64,000 nt of DNA from a virus (taxonomy: Duplodnaviria > Caudoviricetes), in the IMG/VR virus record IMGVR_UViG_3300017933_000003, positions 15,653 through 79,652 of that record. One strand, 5' to 3'. Shown here in pieces: positions 640 to 60,539 of the stretch; position 1 is the stretch's first letter, and every line of letters begins with the position of its first letter. The position numbers were made by a program, and so were the translations under genes. The notes beneath the pieces were generated by a model, which saw only the letters and a list, made by a program, of their open reading frames with translations, ran no database searches and had not been told where the DNA came from.

Positions 640-1146
640 ATGAAGTGTTCTCGATGTGATAGGAACGATCTTACTGAAGAAGATTTTTATAAAACTTCAA
701 GTGGATATCTTTATTCTTTCTGTAAAGTTTGTCATAATAAACAGAGCGCTAAGGCAAAGAAAGCCAGGTATCAGCTTCCTGAAAATAAAATTAAGATGTC
801 TCAAAAAGCTAAGCGGGCGAGACAAAATCCTGAAAAACGAGCAAATGTAATTTTTACAGATTCAAAAAGTTCTGACAAAAAACATAATAGAGAGTTCGAT
901 CTAACAGTAGATTTTATTAAGGAAATTATTAGCGCAGAATGTTCTTATTGTGGTGAAACTGAATTGCAAATGACAGTGGATAGAATAGATAATAATATTG
1001 GTCATTTACAAAACAATGTTGTGGCTTCCTGTATTAGATGTAATTTAATAAGAAAAGCGATGCCATACGAAGCTTGGCTGTGTCTATTGCCGGGTTTGAG
1101 AGAAGCGAGGGAGAAAAAATTATTTGTCGATTGGTTGGGTAAATAG
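640..1146 (+). CDS. HNH-type homing endonuclease with CxxC zinc fingers
   Basis: CSYCG...VDRIDNNIGHLQNNVVASCIRCN. Confidence 0.8.
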   Translation: MKCSRCDRNDLTEEDFYKTSSGYLYSFCKVCHNKQSAKAKKARYQLPENKIKMSQKAKRARQNPEKRANVIFTDSKSSDKKHNREFDLTVDFIKEIISAECSYCGETELQMTVDRIDNNIGHLQNNVVASCIRCNLIRKAMPYEAWLCLLPGLREAREKKLFVDWLGK

Positions 1147-1169
1147 GTGATATAATAATATTTATACAT

Positions 1170-1252
1170 GGGAAGGTAGCTCAGTGTCAGAGCGCAAGGC
1201 GTCCGCAAGGAAAACCTTGAGGTCGGTGGTTTGATTCCATCCCTTCCCACCA
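1170..1252 (+). tRNA. tRNA-Phe-like gene with expanded 15-nt anticodon loop
   Basis: acceptor GGGAAGG/CCTTCCC, ACCA end, D arm GCTC/GAGC, T arm GGTGG-TTTGATT-CCATC; stem CAAGG/CCTTG encloses CGTCCGCAAGGAAAA. Confidence 0.7.
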
Positions 1253-1312
1253 AGCTGAATGCAGATGTGATTACATCGGAAAAATGCAAAATCTCATCAA
1301 CTCTTGTCAGCT
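1253..1312 (+). ncRNA. tRNA-spacer RNA motif, copy 1
   Basis: AGCTGA/TCAGCT closing stem, ATGC, inner stem GATGTGATT/AATCTCATC, ACAT loop start, AACTCTTG. Confidence 0.65.
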
Positions 1313-1317
1313 TTTAT

Positions 1318-1412
1318 GCACCGATAGCTCAGTGTTAGAGCAGCTGGTCAATGTCCGAATAAAAACGGATAAACTTGCAGGTCGTGTGGTTCAACTCCCG
1401 CTCGGTGCCCCA
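1318..1412 (+). tRNA. tRNA-Thr-like gene with hairpin insertion replacing the anticodon loop
   Basis: acceptor GCACCGA/TCGGTGC + CCCA; GAGCAGCTG...GCAGGTC resembles Thr tRNAs; insert TGTCCG-AATAAAAA-CGGATA. Confidence 0.6.
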
Positions 1413-1452
1413 CTTATGGCTTGATTCATGTAAAAGTGAATTGTGCCACCAC

Positions 1453-1510
1453 ACCGAATGCCAGTAGGATTACATACCATAAAAAACAAATCTTACTAAC
1501 TATTGTCGGT
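1453..1510 (+). ncRNA. tRNA-spacer RNA motif, copy 2
   Basis: ACCGA/TCGGT closing stem, ATGC, AGTAGGATT/AATCTTACT, ACAT, AACTATTG. Confidence 0.65.
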
Positions 1511-1512
1511 AT

Positions 1513-1598
1513 GGAGTAGACGAGTCATCGGTAGACTCACCAGTCTGTAAAACTGGCGCCTTTGTGCACTGTGGGTTCGAATCCCTCCTGCTCCACCA
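1513..1598 (+). tRNA. tRNA-Tyr(GTA)
   Basis: cloverleaf, CCAGT-CTGTAAA-ACTGG, long variable arm, TTCGAAT loop, ACCA. Confidence 0.95.
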
Positions 1599-1646
1599 TC
1601 CAGTTCTAAACTGGTTTGTTCGATGACAACTTAATAACTTTTCGTT

Positions 1647-1768
1647 CGGCGATTAGTACAGTCTGGTAGTACGCTTGTTTTGGCTTGTTAATCATAAATA
1701 GTGATGGAATATTCGCTACTTATGACAAGTACAAGAGGTCAGAGGTTCGAATCCTCTATCGCCGACCA
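1647..1768 (+). tRNA. tRNA-Pro(TGG) with 45-nt intron-like insertion (1684-1728)
   Basis: removing 1684-1728 gives a canonical 77-nt tRNA-Pro: CGGCGAT/ATCGCCG, CTTGT-TTTGGGT-ACAAG, AGAGG-TTCGAAT-CCTCT, ACCA. Confidence 0.85.
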
Positions 1769-1907
1769 ACTAGTTTAGCTTCTTTATAGTTTACCTATAA
1801 ACGTGAGATTACTGAACCTCACCACTTTGTGATGCTTAGCATGATAAAAGCCAAATTATAATTGTGGTACTGGTCAACACGCCAGTGAGCTGAATGAATG
1901 TGTTAAT

Positions 1908-1982
1908 CAGAGTGTGGTGTAAGGATAGCATGAGCCGCTTGGAACGGTTCGGAATTCCGTTTGACTCGGATCACTCTGACCA
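1908..1982 (+). tRNA. tRNA-Pro(TGG), divergent
   Basis: CAGAGTG/CACTCTG, AGCCG-CTTGGAA-CGGTT, ACCA. Confidence 0.85.
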
Positions 1983-2019
1983 CTCTATTTCGAAAAGGTA
2001 CGTAGTAATTAAGTTTACC

Positions 2020-2094
2020 GGGGTAGAGCGTTTGCTAAGTATCAATTTATGCAAGTTAGTAAACTTGTGGTGTAGTTCCATTTCTACTCCCTAA
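2020..2094 (+). pseudogene. degenerate tRNA-like element with G3.U70 acceptor stem
   Basis: GGGGTAG/CTACTCC stem and T-like arm; no clear anticodon, no CCA. Confidence 0.35.
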
Positions 2095-2096
2095 TA

Positions 2097-2265
2097 TGCA
2101 ATGGACCAATTAGAGGCTGAACTCTAATAGCGTAATCGGATGCGCTTGATATTCCGATTGGCGGCGGGAAGATAGTATAATAGCTATCCCTCCTGAGATT
2201 GTTAATTGCTCATTAACTAATTAACTTGCAGCCCAGAGCTTCGAGGCGCAGAATATCGAAGCTGC
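2097..2265 (+). ncRNA. unassigned multi-hairpin RNA in tRNA cluster
   Basis: hairpins ATTAGAG/CTCTAAT, AATCGGA/TCCGATT, GTTAAT/ATTAAC, AGCTTCGA/TCGAAGCT; no credible ORF. Confidence 0.4.
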
Positions 2266-2269
2266 TTAT

Positions 2270-2346
2270 TCCTGCTTAGCTCAGTGTTAGAGCATCATCC
2301 GTTATGGGGTGAAGGTCGGTCGGTTCAATTCCACCAGTGGGAGCCA
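2270..2346 (+). tRNA. tRNA-Asn(GTT)-like gene with atypical 8-nt anticodon loop
   Basis: TCCTGCT/AGTGGGA + GCCA; loop CGTTATGG lacks U33. Confidence 0.55.
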
Positions 2347-2349
2347 TAT

Positions 2350-2469
2350 GTTTCAATAGCTTAAGAGTTAAGTAGGCAAGATGATTATTCGCGCGAAACA
2401 AGTCTTGCCGAAGGTAGAGCGCCCTTATTCAATAGGGAGATGGAGGTTCGAATCCTTCTTGAGACACCA
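2350..2469 (+). tRNA. tRNA with ~47-nt hairpin insertion in D loop; anticodon ambiguous (TCA or TTC)
   Basis: GTTTCAA/TTGAGAC + ACCA, GGAGG-TTCGAAT-CCTTC; insert with GGCAAGA/TCTTGCC between GCTTAA and GGTAGAGC. Confidence 0.7.
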
Positions 2470-2524
2470 GGAAACAAATGCCCGAAAGGGATTACATTTT
2501 TATTAGTAAAGCGACATGTTTTCC
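2470..2524 (+). ncRNA. tRNA-spacer RNA motif, compact variant
   Basis: GGAAACA/TGTTTTCC closing stem, AATGC-CCGAAAGGG-ATTACAT. Confidence 0.45.
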
Positions 2525-2547
2525 GAATCGATGATATATGTCATAGT

Positions 2548-3093
2548 ATGAGCACGAAGAAATGCACTCAATGCGGTATTGAAAAAGAATTTTCGGAATT
2601 TAGCCCGAAAGGTAATGGTAAATACGCCAGTCGATGTAAAATTTGTATCGCCGCTAATAAACGCGTAAAATATGTTAGGCACCCAGGGGCGACCCGTCCT
2701 CCTGTTTTAGAAGGAGATACTAAGCGGTGTCGAATCTGTTTAGAAGTGAAAGATATAAGTGAGTTTTATTCTAATAATGGATGTGGCACCCATAGAAATG
2801 AATGCAAATCTTGCCTAATAGACAAAAGAAAAAAGAAATACGATCAAACGCGCCAAATTTTATGGAACTATCTAAAAGAGCATCCGTGTGTAGATTGTAG
2901 TGAAGACGATCCGCTCGTTTTGGAATTTGACCATATTTCGAATAAATTTCAAGAAATTAGTGATCTAATAAGAAATGGATATAATGTAGAAACGATTTTC
3001 AAAGAGATTGAAAAGTGTGAAGTAAGATGTGCCAATTGTCATCGCAGAAAAACTGCGATTCAACTCAATTGGTATAAAGATGTGCAAAAGTAA
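2548..3093 (+). CDS. HNH homing endonuclease
   Basis: repeated CxxC fingers; CVDC...LEFDH...CEVRCANCHRRKT; ATG 2548 preferred over track start inside tRNA. Confidence 0.85.
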   Translation: MSTKKCTQCGIEKEFSEFSPKGNGKYASRCKICIAANKRVKYVRHPGATRPPVLEGDTKRCRICLEVKDISEFYSNNGCGTHRNECKSCLIDKRKKKYDQTRQILWNYLKEHPCVDCSEDDPLVLEFDHISNKFQEISDLIRNGYNVETIFKEIEKCEVRCANCHRRKTAIQLNWYKDVQK

Positions 3094-3098
3094 TTAAC

Positions 3099-3168
3099 GT
3101 CGTTGTAGCATAACCTTCAATGCAGGGGACGCCTAATATGTGTGGTGTAAATCCCACCAACGGCGCCA
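3099..3168 (+). pseudogene. tRNA-like gene lacking a normal anticodon arm
   Basis: GTCGTTG/CAACGGC + GCCA, D stem GCAT/ATGC, T arm present. Confidence 0.5.
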
Positions 3169-3258
3169 AAGATTCCGGTTCTGGTGAAAGTGCGCACAAG
3201 GTTGGTTCGATTCCAACACGGATATCTAGGCAATATGATGCATAGTATTGCCGCCTAT

Positions 3259-3333
3259 TCCTAAGTACCATAAGAGCAATGGACCTCGCTGTTAACGAGT
3301 TATATGTGGGTGCAACCCCTACCTTAGGAGCCA
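3259..3333 (+). tRNA. tRNA-Asn(GTT)
   Basis: TCCTAAG/CTTAGGA + GCCA; CTCG-CTGTTAA-CGAG. Confidence 0.9.
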
Positions 3334-4035
3334 TTATATGAGCGATAATGCTAATTGATTTTTTCTTGGCATAGATAGTTTATGTTCAGGGTAGTATAGC
3401 CAAGTTAATAATTTTTGGGCATTTGAATCATTAAATTGTAGTCGATATTGATTGCAAGTCGCAATGACCTCTTTACCTCTAATGATTGAGTTTTTTGGAC
3501 TCAATGTAATTATGTGGCAGCTAATATTACTTGGTATTAGTGATGATATTTGTTCAATAAATATTTTTGAGGCAGAACACAAATATATTGTTCTTTTAGT
3601 ATACCAGTATTCTTTATTGTTTTTAACTTTCTTATATGGGCACGAGGTAATTGATCCGTCCCCATCAATTAGTCCTCGGATAAAGTCTCGATGATATTTT
3701 TCTGGTATCGTTTTTTCTAATAATAAAGTTTTAGATTTGCGTGGAGTGCACCCATAAGATATGAGCCAACTCATAGCATCAATATCCGAAACTTCTATTG
3801 CGCAGCAATTAAGTCGGTCGTATAATGGCTTGTTAGGACAAATAATATCTCGGATATTTTCAATCCAATCTCTATCTTTAGATATTATACTAAAGGAGAC
3901 GTGATGCTTGGTATCGTTGATATTACCGTCCGTCATATACGCGCCCAATAAATAAAATGAGACATCGTCTTCACGAAGAAACACATCAGAGTTAACGATA
4001 TATTTTCTGACAGTAGCTTTTTTCATAAGTTCCAT
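3334..4035 (-). CDS. LAGLIDADG homing endonuclease
   Basis: YLLGAYMTDGN and FIRGLIDGDGS motifs; AGGAG before ATG at 4035. Confidence 0.9.
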   Translation of the reverse strand: MELMKKATVRKYIVNSDVFLREDDVSFYLLGAYMTDGNINDTKHHVSFSIISKDRDWIENIRDIICPNKPLYDRLNCCAIEVSDIDAMSWLISYGCTPRKSKTLLLEKTIPEKYHRDFIRGLIDGDGSITSCPYKKVKNNKEYWYTKRTIYLCSASKIFIEQISSLIPSNISCHIITLSPKNSIIRGKEVIATCNQYRLQFNDSNAQKLLTWLYYPEHKLSMPRKNQLALSLI

Positions 4036-8012: not shown

Positions 8013-8086
8013 GGGTTCATAGCTTAATGGTAAAGCAACCGGCTCTTACCCGGTCGATTAGGGTTCGATTCCCTGTGGACCTACCA
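8013..8086 (+). tRNA. tRNA-Lys(CTT)
   Basis: GGGTTCA/TGGACCT + ACCA; ACCGG-CTCTTAC-CCGGT. Confidence 0.95.
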
Positions 8087-12998: not shown

Positions 12999-13081
12999 GG
13001 GTCCGTCGTCTAGTGGCTATGACAGCGGTCTTTTAAACCGTCGCTTCGGCATCGTGGGTTCGAGTCCCACCGGACCTACCA
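12999..13081 (+). tRNA. tRNA-Lys(TTT) with extended variable arm
   Basis: GGGTCCG/CGGACCT + ACCA; GCGGT-CTTTTAA-ACCGT; variable region CGCTTCGGCATC. Confidence 0.9.
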
Positions 13082-18325: not shown

Positions 18326-18687
18326 GTAGAGTAGCTCGGGTAATCGCTACATAATATGTAGAGGAAAGTACGGGCTTTATAGGACAAGATGCTGGTTAAC
18401 GACCAGATACAGTAATGTAATGGAAAGTGCAACAGAAAATACAACGCCAACTGATAAGACCTAGTCTTATAAAGGGCAAGTGTGAAAAGGCGAGGTAATA
18501 GCTCACCGCATTTACAGTGATGTAAATGGCAAGTGCAAACCCCATCTAAAGCAAGGCAAACAGTAAACGCTTGAGGGCTGTCCGTCCAATGTTTACGGGT
18601 TGCTGCTTGAGTCAATAAGTAATTATTGACCTAGATTAATGATTGCCTGATTTTATACACAGAACCCGTCTTATAGGGCTGCTCTAC
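18326..18687 (+). ncRNA. rnpB: RNase P RNA
   Basis: GAGGAAAGTACGGGC, GGAAAGTGCAACAGAAA, AAACCCC..AGCAAG, ACAGAACCCGTCTTA; P1 GTAGAGTAGCTC/GGGCTGCTCTAC. Confidence 0.93.
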
Positions 18688-19102
18688 TTTTTCTATAATT
18701 AATAATGGCTGTTACTGCAATTTTAGTTTCCTCAACTGTAAGAAAATTATTTCTTATTGAATTGCATTGTTTACAACAAGGTAAAACGTTATCAACAGTA
18801 TATCCTTTAGTATTATCTATTCTGTCTAATCCAGATCCATATTTAGATTTTGCAGCAAAGAAGTCTTCACAATAATAACAAGGTTTAGAAATCAATTTTG
18901 CATATTCATCAATAGTAATTGCCCACTCTTTATGAATTTTAATGCCTCTTTGTTTAGATTTTGCAAAACGAGATCCAATTTTTTGTTGTTGTTTAGATGC
19001 AGCCTCTTTGACTTGTGGTGTTTGTTGGTAACATTTTTTACATATTGGACCAGTATACCACTGATAGCTTTCGTGTGTTCCGCATTTAATGCACGCTTTC
19101 AT
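18671..19102 (-). CDS. HNH homing endonuclease
   Basis: PCYYC...GLDRIDNTKGYTVDNVLPCCKQCN. Confidence 0.85.
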   Translation of the reverse strand: MKACIKCGTHESYQWYTGPICKKCYQQTPQVKEAASKQQQKIGSRFAKSKQRGIKIHKEWAITIDEYAKLISKPCYYCEDFFAAKSKYGSGLDRIDNTKGYTVDNVLPCCKQCNSIRNNFLTVEETKIAVTAIINYRKSRAAL

Positions 19103-19165
19103 ATATTGAAATATATCAGCAATATCATCATTTTAAATGAAAAAAGAATCGTTATTAGGTGTCAC

Positions 19166-19663
19166 ATGAAAAATAAAAATCCCATCACTAAAGGACCCAT
19201 CACCAAGGGACTTGTAGTCGATTGGCAAGAAGCTCGCGAGAAAGCCGATCAACTTGAAGATAAAATAACTGATCGACTTGATTACGTTATTCAAACTATT
19301 TTTGACGCCTTTGGCGTTATATTATACACCTGGTATTTTGGTGATGCAGCACAAGGAGAATTAGGTTCTCTCACTTGGGATGAACCAGAAATATTTATGG
19401 TTTGGGACGCTTCATCTCATGAAGAATTTATCATCCTCGACAGAGATGGGAACGAATTGATAATGGAAGGATCGGTACCTACCCGTTGGCTCTTCCAATC
19501 TTTCGAAGAAGAGCTAAGAGACGGCAAAAGAAAATATGAGGAGCAGGAGTCAGCTCGATTGGCGAAAGTTCTTTCTGTTAAGGAAGCTACTAAAAAGTTA
19601 GCTGCCAGTGCCAAAAAGAAGTTGACCAAAGAAGAGCTAGCAGCCATCAAGAAAACTTTATGA
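19166..19663 (+). CDS. hypothetical protein
   Basis: ORF, start at MKNKNP. Confidence 0.7.
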   Translation: MKNKNPITKGPITKGLVVDWQEAREKADQLEDKITDRLDYVIQTIFDAFGVILYTWYFGDAAQGELGSLTWDEPEIFMVWDASSHEEFIILDRDGNELIMEGSVPTRWLFQSFEEELRDGKRKYEEQESARLAKVLSVKEATKKLAASAKKKLTKEELAAIKKTL

Positions 19664-20298
19664 AAATCAAACTAGCTTACCCTAAAATACCTGATACCTT
19701 GCATTGTCCACTTAAAAACTGTATAGCATTTGAGAAGATAGATGGAACGTGTTTGCATTTTGTCTGGTCTCCTGAACATGGTTTCCACAGTTTTGGAACT
19801 CGAAGGGATCGATTCACTTATATTGATGCTAGCTTTGCTCAGTTTCATCAGGATCATCCCGGGCTGAACGGGTTGGAACCAGCCTTCCAGAAAATCGAGC
19901 AGCCACTGTCAGATTTTCTGATCAAAAATTACTATAGCACCAAAGAAGTTATCATCTTCACCGAATTCCACGGACCTCACTCTTTTGCTGGCACCCACAA
20001 CCTTAAAGAGGAAAAGAAGCTGACCCTCTTCGATGTGCAGGTAGATGGGGCGATGCTGGCGCCAGATGAATTTATAAAACTGTTTGAGCCCTTTGGCGTC
20101 CCCAAGGTGGTCTTTCGGGGAAAGTTCACTGGGCAGCTCTTTATGGATGTGCGCAGCGGCAAGTATCCCGTTGCTGAAGGTGTGGTGGTTAAAGGCATGG
20201 TAGATGGTCAAGTCTATATGGCTAAGATAAAGACGAACGCTTATTTGGCAAAATTGAAGAATCAATTTAAGGATAATTGGCGAGAATATTGGGAATAA
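19660..20298 (+). CDS. ATP-dependent RNA ligase-like nucleotidyltransferase
   Basis: motifs I FEKIDGT, III FTEFHG, IIIa LFDV, IV EGVVVK, V KIK. Confidence 0.8.
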   Translation: MKIKLAYPKIPDTLHCPLKNCIAFEKIDGTCLHFVWSPEHGFHSFGTRRDRFTYIDASFAQFHQDHPGLNGLEPAFQKIEQPLSDFLIKNYYSTKEVIIFTEFHGPHSFAGTHNLKEEKKLTLFDVQVDGAMLAPDEFIKLFEPFGVPKVVFRGKFTGQLFMDVRSGKYPVAEGVVVKGMVDGQVYMAKIKTNAYLAKLKNQFKDNWREYWE

Positions 20299-58674: not shown

Positions 58675-59475
58675 ATGCCTGCGAAAATTTCCCGAGAGAT
58701 AGAAAAACAAATTTGCCAATTGTATAATAATGGGACTGGTACCAATGAGATATCGGTTCAATTAAAAATACATCGAGCCACGGTTCAACGCACTTTAATA
58801 AGAAGTGGGATTAAATTAAGAAAAACCTCGCCTTATAAGAAAAAGTATAATGTTAAGTATTTTGATAAATATACAGCAGAAAATTGTTATTGGGCGGGGT
58901 TTATTTTAGCAGATGGTACTATTCGTTCAGATAGAGACGCCGTTGAAATACATCTACAAAAGAAGGACAAGAAACATTTACTTAAGTTTGCTAAAGCAAT
59001 AGGTTTTACTGGAGATTTAATTTATGATAAATCAAGTAATGCTTATACGATATCTATCGCTGGTAAGTGGTTTCCTAACGCACTAAAAAAGAACTTTTCA
59101 ATAGAAAGTAGAAAGTCTTTAACTTCTGTATTTCCTACACAAATACCACAGAAATATTGGACGCACTTAATACGAGGCTATTTTGATGGTGATGGTTGTA
59201 TAACAAGACAAAGTTGTCCAATTATTAGTTTTATCGGAACTAATATGTTATTACGGTTTTTGTCAGAACTCTTTTATAGTTGGGGAATTAGATTAAAGTC
59301 TAAAAATAAATATGCTCCGCTTATAAAAACACCTAATGAACTCATTAGCTTTATTTCTTATTCAGGATTAAATGCACTCAAAATATTGAATCGTATGTAT
59401 GATTATTCGGCGCCCAATACCAGATTAGATAGAAAATATAAGAGATTTATCAAGTATTTTGGAAATAAATCATGA
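58675..59475 (+). CDS. LAGLIDADG homing endonuclease with N-terminal HTH
   Basis: YWAGFILADG, IRGYFDGDGC. Confidence 0.92.
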   Translation: MPAKISREIEKQICQLYNNGTGTNEISVQLKIHRATVQRTLIRSGIKLRKTSPYKKKYNVKYFDKYTAENCYWAGFILADGTIRSDRDAVEIHLQKKDKKHLLKFAKAIGFTGDLIYDKSSNAYTISIAGKWFPNALKKNFSIESRKSLTSVFPTQIPQKYWTHLIRGYFDGDGCITRQSCPIISFIGTNMLLRFLSELFYSWGIRLKSKNKYAPLIKTPNELISFISYSGLNALKILNRMYDYSAPNTRLDRKYKRFIKYFGNKS

Positions 59476-60539
59476 ACAATATTCCCCCGAGTATCACCAA
59501 TAAAATAGGACAGGGTTTATACAAGATCCCCAATCATCCCCTGACCATCATCAAGGAGAAGATATTTGAATACTTTGATGATCTGGCAAGAATTGAAATT
59601 GGAATACCCTATGTGTTGGTCGAAAATAACTTTGACAGGCTACGTGTGCCCCTAGATCACCCTTCTCGTCATCTCACTGACACTTTCTATCAGGATGAGA
59701 TGACCTGTCTTCGCACTCATATGACTTGCTATTTATACCCGATTGGCAAGTCACACAGCGGCACTAGCCAGCTTAAGTATATTACCTGTGGCGATGTATA
59801 TCGCAAAGATGCTATTGATGCCACCCATTATCCGGTTTTCCATCAAGTGGATGCTTTCTGTATCGTGCCTGATGGTATGGATGTTAAACAGGACTTACGT
59901 AATAGACTTACAGGTTTGGTCAAACACCTTTTTGGCGATTCGTGTGAATACCAATTTCTAGAGGATTCGGAACATGAGGATGTTTACTTTCCCTTTACGG
60001 TTAATTCCTTAGAAGTTAGTGTCAAGTTTCGTATGGAAGATGGTCAAGAGAGGCATTTGGAAGTGTTGGGTGCCGGGACGGTCCATCCAGATATCATGAA
60101 AGATCTGGGATTAGAGAATCATCAAGCCTGGGCTTTCGGTTTGGGATTAGAGCGCTTGGCTATGGTGATGTTCGATATCCCCGACATTCGACTTTTCTGG
60201 AGCCAAGATGCCCGTTTTCTAAATCAATTCAAGGCAGGAGAGATTACTAAATTCAAGCCCTTCTCTAAATATGAAGTATGCTATAAAGACGTTTCTTTTT
60301 ATGTGAGCGATAAATTCTCTTATAACGATATGTGTACTATCGCTCGCGATGAGGATAAAGATAGCCTGATCGAATCGATTACTTTAATCGACGAATTTGA
60401 GAAAAAGGGGCGCACCTCACAATGTTATAGGATTACTTACCGTTCGATGGAGCGCACTTTGGTCAATGCAGAAGTAGATAAAGTGCAGAAAAATATTCGT
60501 CAAAGATTGACCAAAGAATTAGAAGTGGAGATACGATAA
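59472..60539 (+). CDS. pheS: monomeric (mitochondrial-type) phenylalanyl-tRNA synthetase
   Basis: NHPL, LRTHMTC, YRKDAIDATHYPVFHQVD, AFGLGLERLAM, DIRLFW, C-terminal FDX anticodon-binding domain. Confidence 0.92.
   Translation: MNNIPPSITNKIGQGLYKIPNHPLTIIKEKIFEYFDDLARIEIGIPYVLVENNFDRLRVPLDHPSRHLTDTFYQDEMTCLRTHMTCYLYPIGKSHSGTSQLKYITCGDVYRKDAIDATHYPVFHQVDAFCIVPDGMDVKQDLRNRLTGLVKHLFGDSCEYQFLEDSEHEDVYFPFTVNSLEVSVKFRMEDGQERHLEVLGAGTVHPDIMKDLGLENHQAWAFGLGLERLAMVMFDIPDIRLFWSQDARFLNQFKAGEITKFKPFSKYEVCYKDVSFYVSDKFSYNDMCTIARDEDKDSLIESITLIDEFEKKGRTSQCYRITYRSMERTLVNAEVDKVQKNIRQRLTKELEVEIR

Follow-up and report, generated by a model that had tools for sequence, protein, structure and literature searches.

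An interrupted proline tRNA gene in a jumbo phage

Near the start of the window, by which we mean the whole stretch of 64,000 nucleotides that was analysed, lies a tRNA gene whose anticodon loop is interrupted by a short hairpin (Table 1). The Rfam tRNA model matches positions 1647-1765 with 55.6 bits (E 4e-10), covering all 71 model positions and leaving a 49-nt gap in the anticodon loop; ARAGORN misses the gene at 1647-1768 in its default mode and reports it with a 45-nt intron in intron mode. When the exons are joined without 1684-1728 the product is a class I tRNA of 77 nt that has a C1-G72 pair, A73, a variable loop of 5 nt and a CCA end encoded in the gene. Its anticodon loop reads UU-UGG-GU; the gene is therefore that of a proline tRNA with the anticodon UGG. 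An ARAGORN parse as Leu(UAA), with the intron placed 2 nt further left, is ruled out by the short variable loop, which is that of class I, and by natural alleles without the insert. Every exon base of the tRNA-Pro is left intact by the insert, and all seven bases of the loop are untouched.

Table 1. Positions of the tRNA genes and processing genes discussed in the text, in window coordinates.
Feature	Position	Strand	Evidence
tRNA-like gene (a), 15-nt anticodon loop with CC-GNAA-GG mini-hairpin	1170..1252	+	Rfam, 54.4 bits
tRNA-like gene (b), 26 nt between imperfect anticodon-stem strands, including a small hairpin	1318..1412	+	Rfam, 38.2 bits
5' exon of tRNA-Pro(UGG): acceptor strand, D arm, 5' anticodon-stem strand, loop bases 32-36 (UUUGG)	1647..1683	+	Rfam; ARAGORN intron mode; identity to uninterrupted alleles in L127, L137 and X8 record 20
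45-nt hairpin insert (mini-intron) between base 36 and G37	1684..1728	+	Stretch absent from X8 record 20, L127 and L137; fold
3' exon of tRNA-Pro(UGG): G37, U38, 3' anticodon-stem strand, 5-nt variable loop, T arm, acceptor strand, A73, encoded CCA	1729..1768	+	Rfam; ARAGORN; allele comparison
Pro2, second tRNA-Pro(UGG)-like paralogue, clade-conserved, deviant T arm in this genome	1908..1982	+	ARAGORN yes; Rfam not at E ≤ 1
Class A RNase P RNA, bacterial type, complete, phage-encoded	18328..18689	+	Rfam RF00010, 281 bits
ATP-dependent RNA ligase-like protein, candidate sealing enzyme	19660..20298	+	Pfam PF09414, E 3e-7; PHROG 548 'RNA ligase', E 4e-10

The record to which the window belongs spans 79.6 kb and is estimated to be 18% complete, and its syntenic relatives are found on contigs of 318-496 kb; the carrier is a jumbo phage, and its lineage is previously undescribed. 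The phage originates from wetland soil and reads as standard code. Its closest isolate by Ro60 is Myxococcus phage Mx1 (51% identity), in which we found 29 tRNA matches, none of them interrupted. By all signs in the sequence, including the class A RNase P RNA and an NAD-dependent ligase, the host is bacterial.

Besides the tRNA array, the window and the 15.6 kb upstream of it encode Ro60 (gene 3 kb upstream of the window), a monomeric PheRS (59472-60539), NAMPT and an NAD-dependent DNA ligase, and several HNH and LAGLIDADG genes lie among the tRNAs or flank the array. The phage RNA ligase gene at 19660, to which the initial annotation had pointed, is present and belongs to PF09414, and it is accompanied by an RNase P RNA of the phage's own; a weakly matching 2H phosphoesterase and a kinase-like P-loop protein are also encoded on the record. 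Between the RNase P RNA and the ligase, and overlapping the start of the latter, sits an orphan protein of about 165 aa (19166-19660), for which eight homologues were found, all on related metagenomic contigs; the open reading frame covering this region (18932-19660) has no Pfam, PHROG or PDB match, and its AlphaFold model has a pLDDT of 58. Neither the splicing endonuclease (PF01974) nor RtcB (PF01139) has a match in the 79.6 kb, which amount to about 18% of the genome.

Natural alleles define the insert

Part or all of the stretch is contained in 14 wetland metagenome runs, all 14 of them DNA, and four wetland DNA runs were aligned to window positions 1100-3400. A contig from run X8 (record 20; 457 nt, depth about 10) joins position 1683 straight to 1729, skipping the 45 bases, which begin with CT and end with AA, and is otherwise without differences in the 39 and 40 bases that flank the insert site; further downstream, positions 1769-2189 are swapped for 340 other bases, so that the contig must derive from a sister phage. 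In run X12, a contig (record 3) carries the insert unchanged, behind an upstream flank that differs from the reference and resembles that of L127. A search of contigs from public metagenomes with the terminal bases of the 5' exon yielded two JGI contigs, L127 and L137; in both of them the Pro gene is uninterrupted and identical at 77/77 bases to the two exons, within flanks that are only 64-72% identical to this phage. The insert-less form thus also stands behind an L127-like upstream flank, and as L127 shares this flank with the insert-plus X12 contig, this one background is found with and without the insert, and the insert is found in a second background as well.

The initial annotation had described a discrete, intron-like insert at 1684-1728 of tRNA-Pro(UGG), with G37 kept, and the insert-less alleles establish exactly these ends. 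The indel cannot slide by even one base, and there is therefore no target-site duplication. Among co-occurring sister phages the Pro insert is optional, and it is without differences wherever it is present. Judged by the distribution of the two states, the insert was recently gained and the insert-less state is ancestral, Pro1 (the first of the two proline genes) being uninterrupted in nine relatives (L127, L137, L139, L140 and L144-L148).

The exons of the Pro gene are 100% identical between genomes in which the flanks and the neighbouring tRNA-Tyr are only about 65-72% identical (window versus L127 and L137); this pattern suggests that the Pro gene has recently been exchanged between co-occurring phages.

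Structure of the insert and comparison with known element classes

The 122-nt RNA is predicted to fold as a cloverleaf with a prolonged anticodon arm. Anticodon arm and insert together reach -17.7 kcal/mol (z = -3.55), and 0/200 shuffles fold as well. From the body outward, the predicted arm consists of the 5-bp anticodon stem, a 4-nt bulge holding U32-G35, and a 5-bp helix that includes a G36-U38 pair and a pair between G37 and the insert's first base; beyond these follow a 4-nt asymmetric internal loop, a 6-bp helix, a 1-nt bulge, a second 6-bp helix and an 8-nt terminal loop. Bases 1-5 of the insert are a copy of the 5' anticodon-stem strand, and its last four bases together with G37 are a copy of the 3' strand; we judge this match of nine specified bases to the anticodon stem to be far beyond chance.

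BLAST searches of the 79.6-kb record and of all fetched loci return the Pro insert itself and no further copy. A search of IMG/VR with the stem pattern of the insert gave no match, a search with the exact boundary pattern gave five chance matches, none of them a tRNA, and a permissive Rfam scan of the insert gave only chance-level miRNA matches.

A range of known elements was considered for the insert. Self-splicing introns of group I or group II were rejected, since their catalytic core takes up some 200 nt or more, against the 45 nt here, and Rfam recognises none in the insert. The bulge-helix-bulge motif does not fit either: only bases 32-34 separate the anticodon stem from the 5' bulge that the motif requires, and the 3' site falls between two paired bases. 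The earlier judgement that the insert is too short for group I and is no canonical bulge-helix-bulge is thus one on which size, Rfam scan and inspection of the fold agree. For a hairpin intron of the RNase III type one would expect a 2-nt 3' overhang, but excision from the minimum-energy fold would leave a 1-nt 5' overhang, the cuts being displaced by one base pair in the wrong direction; the geometry of RNase III is also absent from the inserts in the Lys genes of two relatives (L145 and L146; see below). Removal by RNase P and RNase Z has been proposed for tRNA-shaped introns. The 5' end of our insert coincides with the first base of a helix, and this is the sole fit to such a model; the 3' site misfits, the insert has neither a T-loop mimic nor a CCA end, and a cut of the RNase Z type would take G37 and U38 with it. 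A repeated mobile element (MITE, REP or IS200/IS605-type) was dismissed on the grounds of single copy, no IMG/VR match and no target duplication, and hammerhead-like core motifs in the insert were rejected by eye. A tRNA pseudogene formed by decay is contradicted by exons identical at 77/77 bases to the uninterrupted alleles, a state that a very recent inactivation would share.

Inserts in related phages

Relatives were reached through the cytidylyltransferase gene that lies just upstream of the tRNA array; it has more than 700 homologues, and the syntenic loci L139, L140 and L143-L148 were fetched. A search of IMG/VR based on CoaD gave no relatives. The common gene order is Ro60, cdd, the CoaD-like gene, tRNA (a), Y-like RNA, Tyr, Pro1 and Pro2. 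In L143, Pro1 carries an unrelated 34-nt hairpin in the same loop. A Pro-specific pattern for interrupted genes found none in IMG/VR, and a pattern built on the D arm found one unrelated, uninterrupted Pro gene (L125); a broad pattern for interrupted tRNAs matched at least 117 loci of mixed kinds.

Two further sets of loci come from IMG/VR. A separate family among the matches of the broad pattern (L040, L096, L110, L117, L079, L016, L123, L067 and L071) has a hairpin in the anticodon region followed by an ACAGCA/CUGCAA-like motif and is unlike the Pro insert, and L065 and L103 have inserts that contain a T-arm mimic.

Within the clade, other tRNA genes are interrupted as well. The Lys(CUU) gene of L146 has a 28-nt insert exactly between bases 36 and 37 (36/37), as seen against five uninterrupted orthologues that include the one at window 8013-8086, and the Lys(UUU) gene of L145 has a 27-nt insert at 36/37. 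Genes of the Asn(GUU) type share a homologous insert of 43-47 nt at 35/36; there are two of them in L144, one in L146 and one in the IMG/VR contig L149. In the helix of the Asn insert, pairing is kept by changes on both sides in 5/6 pairs (four gene copies on three contigs), and its structure beats 500/500 shuffles on four of five measures and 494/500 on the fifth, as well as every slid control. The split anticodon loop of these genes, CUGU/UAA, is unchanged while the anticodon stems differ. On this comparative evidence, the Asn insert family is kept by selection, together with the bases of the anticodon loop that it splits.

Altogether, at least seven independent loop insertions have occurred in about eleven loci, and all interrupted tRNA genes of the clade keep intact cloverleaves. 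The position of the insert varies between tRNAs (35/36, 36/37, perhaps 33/34 or 34/35), each insert family is single copy, and no common motif was found among the inserts. The duplication of the anticodon stem, which had been noticed in the initial annotation, holds for the Pro insert and fails as a general feature, the other inserts of the clade being without such a copy.

Possible removal of the insert and alternative explanations

The explanation that we rank first, at a little short of an even chance, is that the Pro insert is an intervening hairpin which proteins cut out of the transcript of a functional tRNA-Pro(UGG) gene, the exons then being resealed. The precursor would fold as a cloverleaf with its anticodon arm prolonged by the hairpin; an endoribonuclease of the phage or of the host would cut after G36 and before G37, while the anticodon stem would hold the tRNA halves together, and RNA-repair enzymes of the phage, with the PF09414 ligase as a candidate, would heal and seal the halves to give a normal tRNA-Pro. 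For as long as the tRNA stayed unspliced, the anticodon loop would be absent as a loop. We put splicing first because many independent and unrelated inserts with untouched exons fit permissive removal better than repeated gene death, and because the Asn family shows that such inserts can be selectively maintained, excision being the simplest account. The processing genes on the record (RNA ligase, RNase P RNA, weak 2H phosphoesterase, kinase-like P-loop protein) count in its favour. Against it count the implied cut sites, which fit no known nuclease geometry, the lack of a PF01974 or RtcB match in the 79.6 kb (about 18% of the genome), the differing positions of the inserts with their lack of a common motif, and tRNA (a), whose loop resembles a tolerated expansion (see below); the Pro insert itself is young, is known as one sequence only and bears no sign of selection of its own, and the paralogue at 1908, with the same anticodon, could make loss of the interrupted gene harmless.

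Extended to the clade as a whole, the proposal is more tentative: it is possible that these phages rely on a protein-driven tRNA splicing that tolerates almost any hairpin at 35/36 or 36/37, with the exon ends cut by measuring from the tRNA body and resealed by phage RNA-repair enzymes. The pre-tRNAs would then offer no loop to host anticodon nucleases until late in processing.

Rather unlikely, in our estimate, is a dead insertion: an event at the DNA level would have placed a palindromic 45-mer in a proline tRNA gene, one of several that are redundant, and inactivated it. The allele would persist because the gene is dispensable, and maybe also because the insert destroys the target site of one of the homing endonucleases scattered among the tRNAs and so spreads with them. 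The insert-less state is the norm among relatives, and since the exons are 100% identical to those of insert-less alleles the insertion event was recent; repeated gene death would nevertheless have to account for all the independent loop insertions counted above, every exon set among them being intact. Small hairpins found also in the variable and D loops of tRNAs of the clade suggest a general mutational source, whereas the compensatory evolution of the Asn insert and the unchanged loop that it splits would be unexpected in decaying pseudogenes. As to dispensability, a second UGG gene does lie 140 nt downstream, but it is itself deviant in this genome: the initial annotation had called it an intact tRNA-Pro(UGG), and what we find is a gene that ARAGORN calls, that Rfam does not report at E ≤ 1 and that has a deviant T loop, so that it is not clearly intact (in L127, L139 and L140 the T loop of the orthologue is canonical). 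As to immunity against an endonuclease, HNH and LAGLIDADG genes flank the tRNA array, but the HNH gene does not track the insert, for L146 has the same 168-aa gene and an uninterrupted Pro gene. Some probability attaches to a recent inactivating insertion because the Pro insert is young, is a single sequence and lies beside a paralogue with the same anticodon, deviant though the latter is here.

We consider it improbable that the interrupted gene is a retained module whose product is a stable RNA shaped like a tRNA but with a 22-bp arm where the anticodon loop would be, a natural 'tRNA scaffold' that would act as a decoy for tRNA-targeting nucleases or enzymes of the host or as a partner of Ro60 in the manner of a Y RNA. 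The phage does encode Ro60, with Y-RNA-like elements between its tRNAs (a weak YrlA match at 1252-1316), and the extended arm is very stable in the predicted fold; yet none of the seven loop bases is altered, and the allele without the insert encodes a normal tRNA. Unusual anticodon arms are kept elsewhere, as in tRNA (a), with its non-canonical 15-nt loop in six genomes, and in a tRNA-like gene with a giant anticodon arm (L001:2611-2727), but the Pro insert is without conserved relatives, and in the Asn genes the split loop bases are constant while nearby stems change, a constancy for which a non-decoding RNA would have no obvious need. An artefact of assembly or sequencing can be set aside with near certainty, as the insert-plus form is found without differences in the independent runs X5 and X12 and in the record, the insert-less form is found in three independent assemblies, and repeats of no more than 5 nt could not confuse an assembler that works with 31-mers.

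Relation to known systems

Short tRNA introns have been described before from Lak megaphages by Devoto et al. (2019, Nat Microbiol, PMC6784885), who termed them enigmatic and noted that such an intron is missing from some genomes, does not vary in sequence among those that have it, and can be bounded by comparing interrupted with uninterrupted genes. Introns in tRNA genes are likewise noted for jumbo phages in a 2026 survey (PMC13037316). Our literature search found no paper on the removal mechanism of short phage tRNA introns. In the present gene the cloverleaf is intact and the interruption, of some tens of bases, falls in the anticodon loop; the insert is optional among relatives, and its carrier is a jumbo phage. 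By these features the Pro insert fits with the short enigmatic introns of huge-phage tRNA genes, as a new member of a kind already known. It shares with the Lak introns the short insertion into the anticodon loop, the optional occurrence in close relatives, the identity where present and the lack of a known splicing route. It differs from them in its lineage (a wetland contig with standard code and Myxococcus phage Mx1 as nearest isolate) and in its form, being a plain hairpin rather than tRNA-shaped, which sits after base 36 and copies the anticodon stem.

Protein-spliced tRNA introns of Archaea and Eukarya (EndA/Sen; RtcB or Trl1) resemble the Pro insert as short, non-catalytic inserts in or near the anticodon loop, with exons held by the mature tRNA body, and their cut-and-ligate route is the natural model for the splicing proposed here. 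They differ in that our insert has no bulge-helix-bulge, lies at 36/37 and not 37/38, and occurs in a phage with a bacterial host, with no EndA homologue in the 79.6 kb. The intervening sequences of bacterial 23S and 16S rRNA offer a second likeness, as hairpin extensions in a hairpin loop of a stable RNA that are sporadic among strains or gene copies and unrelated between lineages. Such rRNA intervening sequences are about 90-150 nt long and are removed by RNase III, the pieces not being rejoined; a tRNA, by contrast, would need resealing to decode, and the cut geometry here is wrong for RNase III. For the second half of the proposed route the model would be Pnkp and Rnl1 of phage T4, which heal and seal a broken anticodon loop. 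These enzymes repair the breaks made by PrrC at 33/34 of host tRNA-Lys, and nothing is removed; compared with Rnl1, the ligase of our phage belongs to PF09414 (Pfam name 'RNA ligase') and is a candidate by its family.

To our knowledge, protein-dependent tRNA splicing is regarded as archaeal and eukaryal, and we know only of self-splicing tRNA introns in bacteria and their viruses. If the inserts described here are spliced, there is a missing enzyme system to discover, and it could bear on phage counter-defence against anticodon nucleases. The locus is a clean test case, with ends fixed by natural alleles, a small insert, the exons of a standard E. coli-like tRNA-Pro, and candidate processing genes on the same contig. 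Because insert-plus and insert-less alleles share a habitat, a junction that looks spliced in metatranscriptome data would prove nothing without linked markers.

Other unusual tRNA-like genes of the array

The tRNA-like gene (a) is kept in six genomes (window 1170-1252; L139:8708-8790; L140:8900-8982; L144:9185-9267; L146:9093-9175; L147:8644-8726), and its acceptor, anticodon and T stems show compensatory changes. Its loop has the form NNN-CC-GNAA-GG-AAAN, in which base 33 is often not U, and it can be parsed either as Phe(GAA) with 8 extra bases at 33/34 or as Gly(NCC) with 8 extra bases at 36/37; the phage has a monomeric PheRS. In L137 the gene has an 8-nt loop, and given this shorter form the loop looks more like a tolerated expansion than an intron. 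The orthologues of tRNA-like gene (b) in L139 and L140 have a 7-nt loop, AGUUAAA, whose UUA would read UAA, with G as base 33. At window 2270-2345 there is a tRNA of the Asn/Gln type (U1-A72, G73) with an 8-nt anticodon loop, the L127 orthologue of which has a 7-nt loop and the anticodon AAU.

Elements resembling Y RNAs start directly after the CCA ends of tRNAs, at window 1253-1316 and 1453-1510 and in the spacers after other tRNAs; the one at 1252-1316 is a weak YrlA match of 29 bits, and the same positions are kept in L139 and L140. Upstream of the window, the tRNA-like gene at L001:2611-2727 is without a 7-nt anticodon loop; its anticodon arm measures about 8-9 bp, with a loop of 16 nt, and its variable arm is 30 nt long. 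Small hairpins are also found outside the anticodon loop: the tRNA-Lys(UUU) at window 12999-13081 has a GC-UUCG-GC mini-hairpin in its variable loop that is absent from its orthologues, the Asn tRNAs of L147 and L148 have GNRA mini-hairpins in their variable loops, and a tRNA of L144 (L144:14823-14937) has an insert of about 40 nt in its D loop.
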